In this document: in pieces, positions 14,534-15,247 of the stretch | Layout: every line of letters begins with the position of its first letter | How positions within the stretch are numbered: position 1 is the first letter of the stretch | Origin: a virus | Virus genome (UHGV): UHGV-2175977 | DNA length: 17,361 bases | Direction: 5' to 3' (one strand) | Position numbers and translations under genes: made by a program | The notes under the pieces: model-generated | The model's database searches: none | Told to the model about the DNA's origin: nothing | The model's input: the letters and a program-made list of their open reading frames with translations, nothing else

Positions 14534-15247
14534 ATGGATGACAGTACTCTGCTCAGGTACTCTTCACTTTTTGTTGCTTATATGGGATGTCTTGGGTGGG
14601 GAAGCGCTTACTTTTATGGCTGGGGTACATCCTTTTATTATGGTTTCCCATGGTGGGTGGTTGGGGCTGGTGTCGATGATGTGGCCAGAAGCCTTTTTTA
14701 TGCCGTTACAGTCATTGTTATATTCCTGATTGGGTGGGGAGTCGGTGTTGTTTTCTTCCTGGGGATCAAACAAAAAAATAATGTGCAGGATCTGAGTTTT
14801 ATCAGACTTTTTCTGGCGATATTGTTGCTTTTTGTTCCGCCTGCTCTGGAGTTTTCAGTAATTCATCGACGCGTTGCGCTAGATGCATTGGTTTTATGCG
14901 TTATTGCTGCCTTAATAATTACGGTTTTTGTCAGGTCAGGAAGAAGACTTATTTCAGTCAAATGTTTTTCGGAAATGTCTTTTATTCGTCATCACTGGAT
15001 TGAGTGTATGATGGTCGGATTCATGATCTATTTCTGGGGATTTTCACTTATTGCCGGTTGGTACAAACCCCAGTTTAAGAAGGAATATCAGATGCTCCAC
15101 TATGATAGTGTCTGGTATTATGTTCTTGCACGCTATGATGACAGGCTGGTGTTGTCGAAATCGTACAGTAATGGGAGTTCTACATTCGTTATACTTAATA
15201 GCGGGCAGATTGATGACTTCGAAATTAATGTAGTCAGAGTGCGTTAA
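14534..15247 (+). CDS. Integral membrane protein of unknown function (about five predicted TM helices, ~55-aa C-terminal soluble tail)
   Basis: 237-aa ORF; hydrophobic segments SSLFVAYMGCLGWGSAYFYGW, SLFYAVTVIVIFLIGWGVGVVFFLGI, FIRLFLAILLLFVPPAL, LDALVLCVIAALIITVFV, WIECMMVGFMIYFWGFSLIAGW; visibly T-rich; first ORF after the tR'-like terminator. Confidence 0.6.
   Translation: MDDSTLLRYSSLFVAYMGCLGWGSAYFYGWGTSFYYGFPWWVVGAGVDDVARSLFYAVTVIVIFLIGWGVGVVFFLGIKQKNNVQDLSFIRLFLAILLLFVPPALEFSVIHRRVALDALVLCVIAALIITVFVRSGRRLISVKCFSEMSFIRHHWIECMMVGFMIYFWGFSLIAGWYKPQFKKEYQMLHYDSVWYYVLARYDDRLVLSKSYSNGSSTFVILNSGQIDDFEINVVRVR

Follow-up and report, generated by a model that had tools for sequence, protein, structure and literature searches.

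The locus and its setting

Our subject is a single open reading frame (ORF) in a 17,361-nucleotide stretch of viral DNA, UHGV virus genome UHGV-2175977 (the whole stretch is called the window below). The ORF lies on the plus strand at positions 14534–15247, starts with ATG and encodes 237 amino acids (aa). We assign its product to the TfpB/STM1630 family of predicted inner-membrane proteins. The window matches an E. coli chromosome at 100% identity, and the annotation of that record has a lambdoid prophage next to ompW, which runs from integrase through RecE, Kil, Rha, the repressor region and the replication genes to a ParDE pair, DUF968, RusA, Q, a "hypothetical protein", two tRNAs and a small ORF, and then to lysozyme, spanin, terminase and the head and tail genes. 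The "hypothetical protein" between Q and the tRNAs, WP_029400660.1, is the ORF studied here. The features of the surrounding late region are as follows.

13609–14283, plus strand: Q antiterminator gene (Q82 type), directly upstream of the studied gene; RefSeq label "bacteriophage antitermination protein Q"
14288–14316, plus strand: putative PR′-like late promoter, TTGCAA-17 nt-TATATT; consensus scan, 9/12 matches
14367–14393, plus strand: tR′-like intrinsic terminator with a 9-bp stem, a 6-nt loop and a U-run; RNA fold −11.4 kcal/mol
14463–14494, plus strand: putative promoter-like block CTTGACT-N17-TTATGC, with TTGACT at 14466–14471 and TGT-TATGCA at 14487–14495
14534–15247, plus strand: tfpB/STM1630-family gene; 237-aa predicted inner-membrane protein with five transmembrane (TM) helices and a C-terminal beta domain
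15370–15445, plus strand: tRNA with anticodon CAT (tRNA-Ile in RefSeq, ileZ-like, reads ATA); ARAGORN, Rfam 72.5 bits
15447–15523, plus strand: tRNA-Arg (TCT, reads AGA); ARAGORN and Rfam
15526–15598, plus strand: degenerate third tRNA-like sequence, directly after tRNA-Arg; Rfam tRNA, 19.8 bits
15939–16211, plus strand: probable holin of 90 aa, the next late gene; weak Pfam matches to Phage_holin_2_3 (E 1e-4) and the P21 holin S family (E 9e-4)
From 16870, after the holin-like gene: endolysin-like ORF

Homology and anatomy together place the studied gene as the predicted first coding gene after PR′/tR′, ahead of the tRNAs. The Q product of the window is 76% identical to the Q82-like antiterminator of phage 434, the PR′-like region aligns with the late-promoter region of that phage, and the tR′-like hairpin matches, base for base, the terminator annotated in the curated 434 record. 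The gene starts 250 bp after Q and 140 bp after the tR′-like terminator; its stop codon precedes the first tRNA by 123 bp, and no terminator-like site was found in that interval. The third tRNA-like sequence falls below the Rfam gathering score of 29 and was not called by ARAGORN; it probably represents the decayed remnant of a third tRNA, corresponding to the second tRNA-Arg of the three-tRNA cluster in an Stx2k prophage described below.

A conserved gene of foreign composition

No in-frame start is found further 5′ after the preceding stop codon, so the ORF cannot be extended, and a Shine-Dalgarno-like GGTG lies at 14525–14528. Against copies that are 78–83% identical, dN/dS is 0.15–0.17 over the whole gene and 0.03–0.065 for residues 1–60. 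The ORF is thus a genuine gene under purifying selection; these ratios and the breadth of its homologues rule out a decaying pseudogene or a chance ORF.

Windowed composition gives the ORF a GC content of 0.40–0.42 and an AT skew of −0.26 to −0.33, with GC near 0.50 on both sides and 0.48–0.52 in the adjacent genes. Thymine makes up 37% of the gene versus 20–26% of twelve other genes in the window. It reaches 42% at codon position 2, as hydrophobic residues entail, and 41% at codon position 3, and the GC content at third positions (GC3) is 0.42 versus roughly 0.48–0.57 in most neighbouring genes. With thymine high at both codon positions, the T-richness has two components, one due to the coding of a membrane protein and the other to an AT-rich, foreign base composition. 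The original prediction, which was made from the letters of the DNA, thus described the gene well in calling it T-rich relative to its neighbours and the first coding gene of the late operon, between tR′ and the tRNAs.

We also observed that the gene is rich in rare codons: AGA or AGG accounts for 8 of its 13 arginine codons and ATA for 4 of its 18 isoleucine codons. These are exactly the codons read by the two downstream tRNAs (TCT, which reads AGA, and CAT, which reads ATA). E. coli Nissle 1917 (locus L016) carries a truncated copy of the gene together with a tRNA-Arg in an island riddled with insertion sequences (IS). Taken together, the codon match and the Nissle 1917 arrangement suggest a gene-plus-tRNA module with a common low-GC origin.

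Membership of the TfpB/STM1630 family

A large protein search returned 124 homologues of the window protein at E ≤ 1e-3, all from Enterobacteriaceae and all labelled "hypothetical" or "membrane protein". A precomputed match to Pfam family PF27470, which is named TfpB, is attached to all 120 homologues among the matches listed, including one that is 100% identical to the window protein (P0001). Our local Pfam copy, which is older than PF27470, gave no match. In the PHROGs collection, residues 17–237 align with positions 1–221 of the 222-position profile of PHROG 1521 (E 5.3e-89), which is annotated as of unknown function. A relative with 47% identity and 100% coverage (P0069) is STM1630 of Salmonella Typhimurium: its gene is divergent from sseJ, and translation of the published primer for deleting STM1630 gives its residues NSSMLLAYLGGLGWG. 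RefSeq attaches the label "STM1630 family protein" to one copy whose DNA is 84.6% identical. More distantly, a profile of the E. coli clade aligned with the tfpB ORF of Moraxella bovis over 228 columns (hhalign probability 99.6%, E 6e-24).

Judged by these matches, the window protein belongs to the family catalogued as Pfam PF27470 TfpB, PHROG 1521 and the NCBI "STM1630 family", and it shows the architecture of that family: five helices, a conserved motif in TM1 and loop 1, and a C-terminal beta domain. The original prediction had recognised no family, and on this point it was wrong. The family is already catalogued, if uncharacterised, and the window gene is another copy of it.

Searches for a relationship of a different kind came back empty. 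Nothing detectable links the protein to virion, lysis or catalogued defence proteins. At E ≤ 1, the PHROGs search gave only four families, all of unknown function and none annotated as exclusion, so that no similarity to the SieA, SieB, Imm, Sp or gp15 types of exclusion protein emerged, and the defence models of PADLOC-DB 2.0 gave none at E ≤ 10. The lone NCBIfam match, to YedE at 15 bits, was judged spurious; the local NCBIfam release holds no STM1630-family model. A literature search on PF27470, on the homologue accessions and on tfpB in Moraxella found no functional statement. Two leads from that literature were set aside: the "TfpB" of papers on Acinetobacter is a different protein, a PilB-like motor, and the name tciB leads to phage P1 and concerns only the DUF3927 gene that neighbours the homologue in phage 434.

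Predicted architecture and topology

Hydropathy analysis (Kyte-Doolittle) gives four strongly hydrophobic segments and one weaker segment, aromatic and glycine-rich, at the N terminus. The better of our AlphaFold models (pLDDT 80, pTM 0.71), for which the input was a 32-sequence alignment reaching down to 12% identity, predicts five long helices at residues 10–36, 47–81, 88–110, 116–136 and 155–181, in agreement with the hydropathy profile, followed by a five-strand beta domain of roughly 55 residues (184–235). The 237-aa membrane protein of roughly five helices that had been proposed from the ORF is therefore what both methods return. A PDB sequence-profile search found nothing below E 3, and the viral folds in BFVD contained no match (the best, at E 0.035, spanned about 65 residues).

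In the 32 family members, lysine plus arginine averages about 9 in the N terminus and loops 2 and 4, versus about 1.7 in loops 1 and 3. By the positive-inside rule, this split would give an N-in/C-out topology: a cytoplasmic N terminus, with loops 1 and 3 and the beta domain on the periplasmic side, so that the conserved loop and the beta domain would both be periplasmic. The alignment, whose members share 12–87% identity, conserves A15, A25, Y26, G37, P39, F167, G175 and Y195. Its most conserved segment, at about residues 10–57 in TM1 and loop 1, reads A15...A25-Y26-x-Y-G-W-G...Y-Y-G-F-P-W-W...D-D-V-A-R-S-L, and with this topology it would form an aromatic belt at the periplasmic face, beside the beta domain. 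Conserved residues of a catalytic type do not stand out as a set, and we infer that the protein is a module for binding or scaffolding, not an enzyme or a transporter. A lipoprotein signal was considered and rejected: C19 is not conserved, and the residue at −3 is tyrosine.

A conserved block upstream of the gene

The promoter-like block is placed about 70 bp downstream of tR′, with about 65 bp between it and the ATG. Across 59 distinct upstream sequences its consensus, CTTGAC(T/G)-N17-TTTGTTATG, is more than 90% conserved while the flanking bases vary, and the homology between phage copies and copies on plasmids of enterotoxigenic E. coli (ETEC) starts exactly at it. Read as a promoter, it has a good −35 element and a TG-extended but poor −10 element. 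One possible reading that fits this conservation is a cassette with a putative promoter of its own, either weak or regulated. A CII-binding site, which is annotated upstream of the gene in the 434 record, was rejected for the window, where the second half-site is not conserved.

In phage lambda, PR′ is constitutive, and its transcripts end at tR′ unless Q is present. The studied gene lies downstream of tR′, so expression that does not depend on Q would need either readthrough or a promoter of its own. Expression in the lysogen from a constitutive PR′, as had been suggested, does not follow from the position of the gene.

Distribution and genomic contexts

The family is small. An exhaustive profile search of 1.84 billion representative sequences found only 72 clusters, with distant full-length members in Neisseria, Avibacterium, Gallibacterium, Actinobacillus and Klebsiella electrica. 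When one genome of each species was scanned, relatives also turned up in Aggregatibacter (two copies per genome), Glaesserella, Rodentibacter, Pasteurella, Spirabiliibacterium, Conchiformibius, Salmonella arizonae and diarizonae, and four Moraxella species. All named sources are animal-associated and belong to the Enterobacteriaceae, Pasteurellaceae, Neisseriaceae or Moraxella. Among complete E. coli genomes, 1197 of 5426, about a fifth, have a match; the gene is carried by 3 of 50,697 phage records and by 156 plasmids. These include plasmids encoding the heat-labile enterotoxin (LT) of ETEC and 106 Shigella plasmids of about 150–245 kb, which are apparently pINV; the Shigella copies are 57–58% identical to the window protein, and on the one plasmid that we inspected the copy lies about 5.5 kb from spa40.

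Within phage-like loci of IMG/VR, the upstream neighbour is stable in kind: a Q gene of one of at least two unrelated types ends 238–285 bp before the family member in about 66 of 80 loci. Downstream partners vary, with a tRNA at +115 to +147, a 65-aa ORF at +177 or a DUF3927 gene at +92. Phages 434 and 2B8 share the order Q, terminator, 59%-identical copy, DUF3927/TciB-like gene, NanS-p esterase, holin. The stx2AB genes lie downstream in two loci (L033, L064) and upstream in one (L082). In the Stx2k prophage of strain STEC711 (L017), the order is Q, the tfpB relative, two small ORFs, three tRNAs, stx2kAB and holin. The IMG/VR prophage contig L022 (2863–7442) has Q, a tfpB relative, a 110-aa ORF without a Pfam match, an LT-II-like A subunit and a holin; the A subunit (263 aa, Pfam Enterotoxin_a, E 2e-102) lies about 460 bp downstream of the tfpB relative. 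We saw no obvious B-subunit ORF after this A gene. The analogy that had been drawn with the cargo slot of Stx phages is thus well founded, with relatives between Q and the tRNAs-stx2k of STEC711 and beside stx2 and the LT-II-like gene.

Outside phages, the ETEC plasmids (L004–L008, at about 4135–5714) carry a 78%-identical copy about 870 bp from eltAB, divergent from it and among IS elements. The homology of these copies to the phage copies from the TTGAC block onward is consistent with a plasmid LT locus derived from a lambdoid late region. In Glaesserella parasuis (L106, 3971–7014), the relative is tail-to-tail with the cytolethal distending toxin genes cdtC-cdtB-cdtA, and together these four make up an islet flanked by the housekeeping genes tsaB and tgt; cdtB is assigned here by position alone, as the ORF has no Pfam match. 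In Avibacterium, Neisseria arctica, Aggregatibacter and Pasteurella canis, the family member is a lone gene among housekeeping genes. Across these comparisons the gene moves as a unit: it is found after Q genes of at least two unrelated types, on plasmids and in chromosomal islets.

Two further observations concern other genes of the prophage. A ParE/RelE-family toxin and ParD antitoxin pair, at 11222–11784 on the minus strand, lies inside the nin region, and the STEC711 Stx2k prophage has this pair at the same position. Between the holin-like and endolysin-like genes, at 16368–16745, is a minus-strand ORF of 125 aa with a GC content of 0.41; it has no Pfam match, and RefSeq marks part of the region as an incomplete pseudogene.

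Published data on relatives

The curators of phage 434, who used HHpred, InterPro and TMHMM, named its homologue (gp68) only "putative membrane protein". In the derivative 434B, the segment from Q to the lysis genes, homologue included, is replaced by DLP12 DNA. Because 434B still forms plaques, the gene is dispensable for lytic growth.

The Salmonella member has received more attention. STM1630 is described as a protein of unknown function whose gene is bound by H-NS and expressed in macrophages and in medium that induces Salmonella pathogenicity island 2 (SPI-2); it clusters with SPI-2/PhoP-type genes in a regulatory network study and is silenced in ST313 by promoter single-nucleotide polymorphisms. 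Signature-tagged STM1630 mutants were attenuated in calves and chickens. Hypermotility, reported from a deletion screen, was rejected as functional evidence, as it is not among the phenotypes confirmed with clean deletions in the follow-up.

What the gene is likely to be

We conclude, with a probability of about 0.9, that the studied gene encodes a functional inner-membrane protein of the TfpB/STM1630 family, carried as dispensable cargo next to Q, and that it would be transcribed with the late operon on induction. It is also probable, if appreciably less assured, that this is a dispensable single-gene cargo cassette (a "moron") of the lambdoid late operon: the gene is dispensable in 434B, variably present, found after at least two unrelated Q types and foreign in composition. 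Its product would act in the envelope of the carrier cell, not in lysis or the virion. On induction, Q-modified RNA polymerase would read through tR′, so that the late transcript would include the gene as well as the tRNAs and the lysis genes; weak transcription in the lysogen may also start from the conserved TTGAC-containing block between tR′ and the start codon. The aromatic surface and the beta domain, if they face the periplasm, might bind the membrane or a periplasmic partner, and such binding could conceivably alter an envelope property that is useful to bacteria on animal hosts rather than serve phage reproduction.

Several points weigh against this picture. The topology is derived solely from the positive-inside rule. 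The −10 element of the upstream block is poor (TATGCA, with no T at position 6), the consensus scan made no call there, and the Salmonella and Shigella copies have no such block, their upstream regions being unrelated. No member of the family has a biochemical or genetic function on record, and the phenotypes of STM1630 are weak or inconsistent: strain 4/74 replicated slightly more in macrophages once the gene was deleted. A shared cargo slot and AT-rich, horizontally acquired DNA may be all that lies behind the adjacency to virulence genes. Finally, two metagenome bins labelled Lachnospiraceae and Veillonella (L098, L099) hold 59%-identical copies on contigs of about 3 kb; this level of identity is that of the phage 434 clade, and the contigs are probably mis-binned Enterobacteriaceae prophage DNA.

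As to what the cargo does, our tentative preference is for an envelope factor in host adaptation of the carrier cell. We favour such a role over one in blocking entry on account of the restriction of the family to animal-associated Proteobacteria, its association with virulence-linked mobile DNA and the infection-type regulation of STM1630. An entry-blocking or immunity-type function is not likely, though credible, and a function outside the envelope, immunity, toxin-linked and lytic categories deserves about the same credence.

The best-surviving specific alternative, still an unlikely one, is superinfection exclusion or another single-gene anti-phage function, in which the protein would block incoming DNA or trigger abortive infection. 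P22 SieA, T4 Imm and HK97 gp15 are small inner-membrane exclusion proteins, and a predicted inner-membrane protein with a conserved periplasm-facing surface, dispensable, lodged in a prophage cargo slot and patchily distributed among related phages and strains, would fit that description. However, the PADLOC and PHROGs searches offered no defence family, and the family is tiny and animal-associated, whereas defence genes usually range more widely. The same housekeeping neighbourhood surrounds the gene in all three Avibacterium assemblies shown, and housekeeping genes flank the Neisseria copy as well. The Salmonella member responds to SPI-2 conditions and macrophages, and transcription mainly past tR′ would be late rather than lysogenic unless the putative promoter of the gene itself works.

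It is improbable that the gene has a toxin-associated accessory role, acting in the release, assembly or self-protection of AB-type toxins as a factor for periplasmic exotoxins or virulence loci. The recurrent adjacency to stx2k, stx2AB, the LT-II-like A gene, eltAB, cdtCBA and sseJ/steB speaks for it. Most copies, however, have no toxin nearby (the window, phage 434, the EDL933 prophage, Aggregatibacter, Avibacterium, Neisseria and Pasteurella), and the three E. coli toxin contexts may all stem from one Q-proximal cargo slot. Co-transcription is excluded at the eltAB and sseJ loci, where the genes are divergent, and at cdt, where they are convergent. In its family-wide form, in which TfpB/STM1630 proteins as a whole would be conserved inner-membrane accessory factors of such loci, we consider the idea decidedly improbable; if true, it would explain the recurrence beside stx2, LT-I, LT-II-like, cdtABC and sseJ/steB genes in unrelated backgrounds, and the factor might act in toxin release or in protecting the envelope of the producer.

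A late lytic role, either in lysis timing (antiholin-like), as the original prediction had also offered, or in protecting the membrane during virion assembly, is very improbable: the protein is a membrane protein encoded first on the late transcript, ahead of the holin-like gene and the endolysin, but the family occurs without lysis genes on plasmids, islands and the chromosomes of four bacterial families (with lone chromosomal copies in Pasteurellaceae, Neisseria and Moraxella), 434B is viable without it, most sequenced lambdoid phages lack it, the window has a separate holin-like gene, and neither the size (237 residues) nor the layout (five TM helices plus a beta domain) of the protein resembles that of holins and antiholins (under about 150 aa, 1–4 TM helices).

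The interest of the gene lies in the spread of its family and the virulence genes that keep it company rather than in anything unusual about the window copy. Besides about a fifth of complete E. coli genomes, phage 434, the ETEC LT plasmids and the Shigella virulence plasmid, the family is found between two SPI-2 effector genes in Salmonella and in the pilin inversion region of Moraxella. A function, once found, could be assigned to thousands of genes now marked "hypothetical" on virulence-associated mobile elements and would tell whether the Q-proximal slot of lambdoid phages holds a second kind of lysogenic-conversion factor besides toxins.

Comparison with known systems

The exclusion proteins SieA, Imm and gp15 resemble the window protein in being prophage-borne, in the inner membrane and dispensable for growth, an analogy of location only. 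They have no similarity to it that the PHROGs and PADLOC searches could detect, and the window protein is larger, has a predicted periplasmic beta domain and has relatives outside phages that stand alone among housekeeping genes.

Closer in genomic behaviour are the lambdoid morons, such as bor and lom of lambda and stx of Stx phages. Like these, the studied gene is non-essential, compositionally foreign, lodged in a late-operon cargo slot and variably present among otherwise syntenic phages, and it may have its own promoter. The parallel is one of analogy: there is no sequence relationship, no terminator follows the studied gene, and no lysogenic-conversion phenotype is on record for it.

Homology over the full length links the window protein to TfpB of Moraxella bovis and M. 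lacunata (26–27% identity), the namesake of Pfam PF27470 and the product of an ORF in the type IV pilin inversion region, with the same layout of five helices and a C-terminal beta domain and a common motif, AY-x-YGWG...YxGYPWW...ARSL. The M. bovis protein differs in its length of 261 aa and in the location of its gene between two inverted pilin 3′ segments rather than in a phage late operon; the match to the M. lacunata copy extends only to residue 141, and that copy lies between an IS110-type invertase (Piv) and a pilin gene. We take the M. bovis ORF to be tfpB of the classical pilin inversion region (Fulks et al., 1990), an identification that rests on gene arrangement. In the M. bovis sequence (L115, 18–1883), the invertible pilin segment contains tfpB, which points the same way as just one of the two pilin 3′ segments, an orientation that would allow its expression to switch with pilin type.

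STM1630 is likewise a full-length homologue, and it is AT-rich, H-NS-bound, horizontally acquired and placed beside virulence genes. In contrast to the window gene, STM1630 is a chromosomal gene, flanked by sseJ and steB and transcribed from a mapped promoter of its own, which is induced under SPI-2 conditions.

The nearest counterparts in both sequence and setting are phage 434 gp68 (CPT_434_68), at 59% identity, and its orthologues in prophages of enterohaemorrhagic E. coli (for example EDL933, WP_001302581.1). The 434 gene occupies the same slot after Q and the terminator and is preceded by the same upstream block; the EDL933 gene shares the slot, but there the Q gene is of a different type from the Q82-like gene of 434. 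In both, a DUF3927/TciB-like gene comes next, at +92 bp, and the NanS-p esterase after it, whereas in the window its place is directly ahead of the tRNAs.

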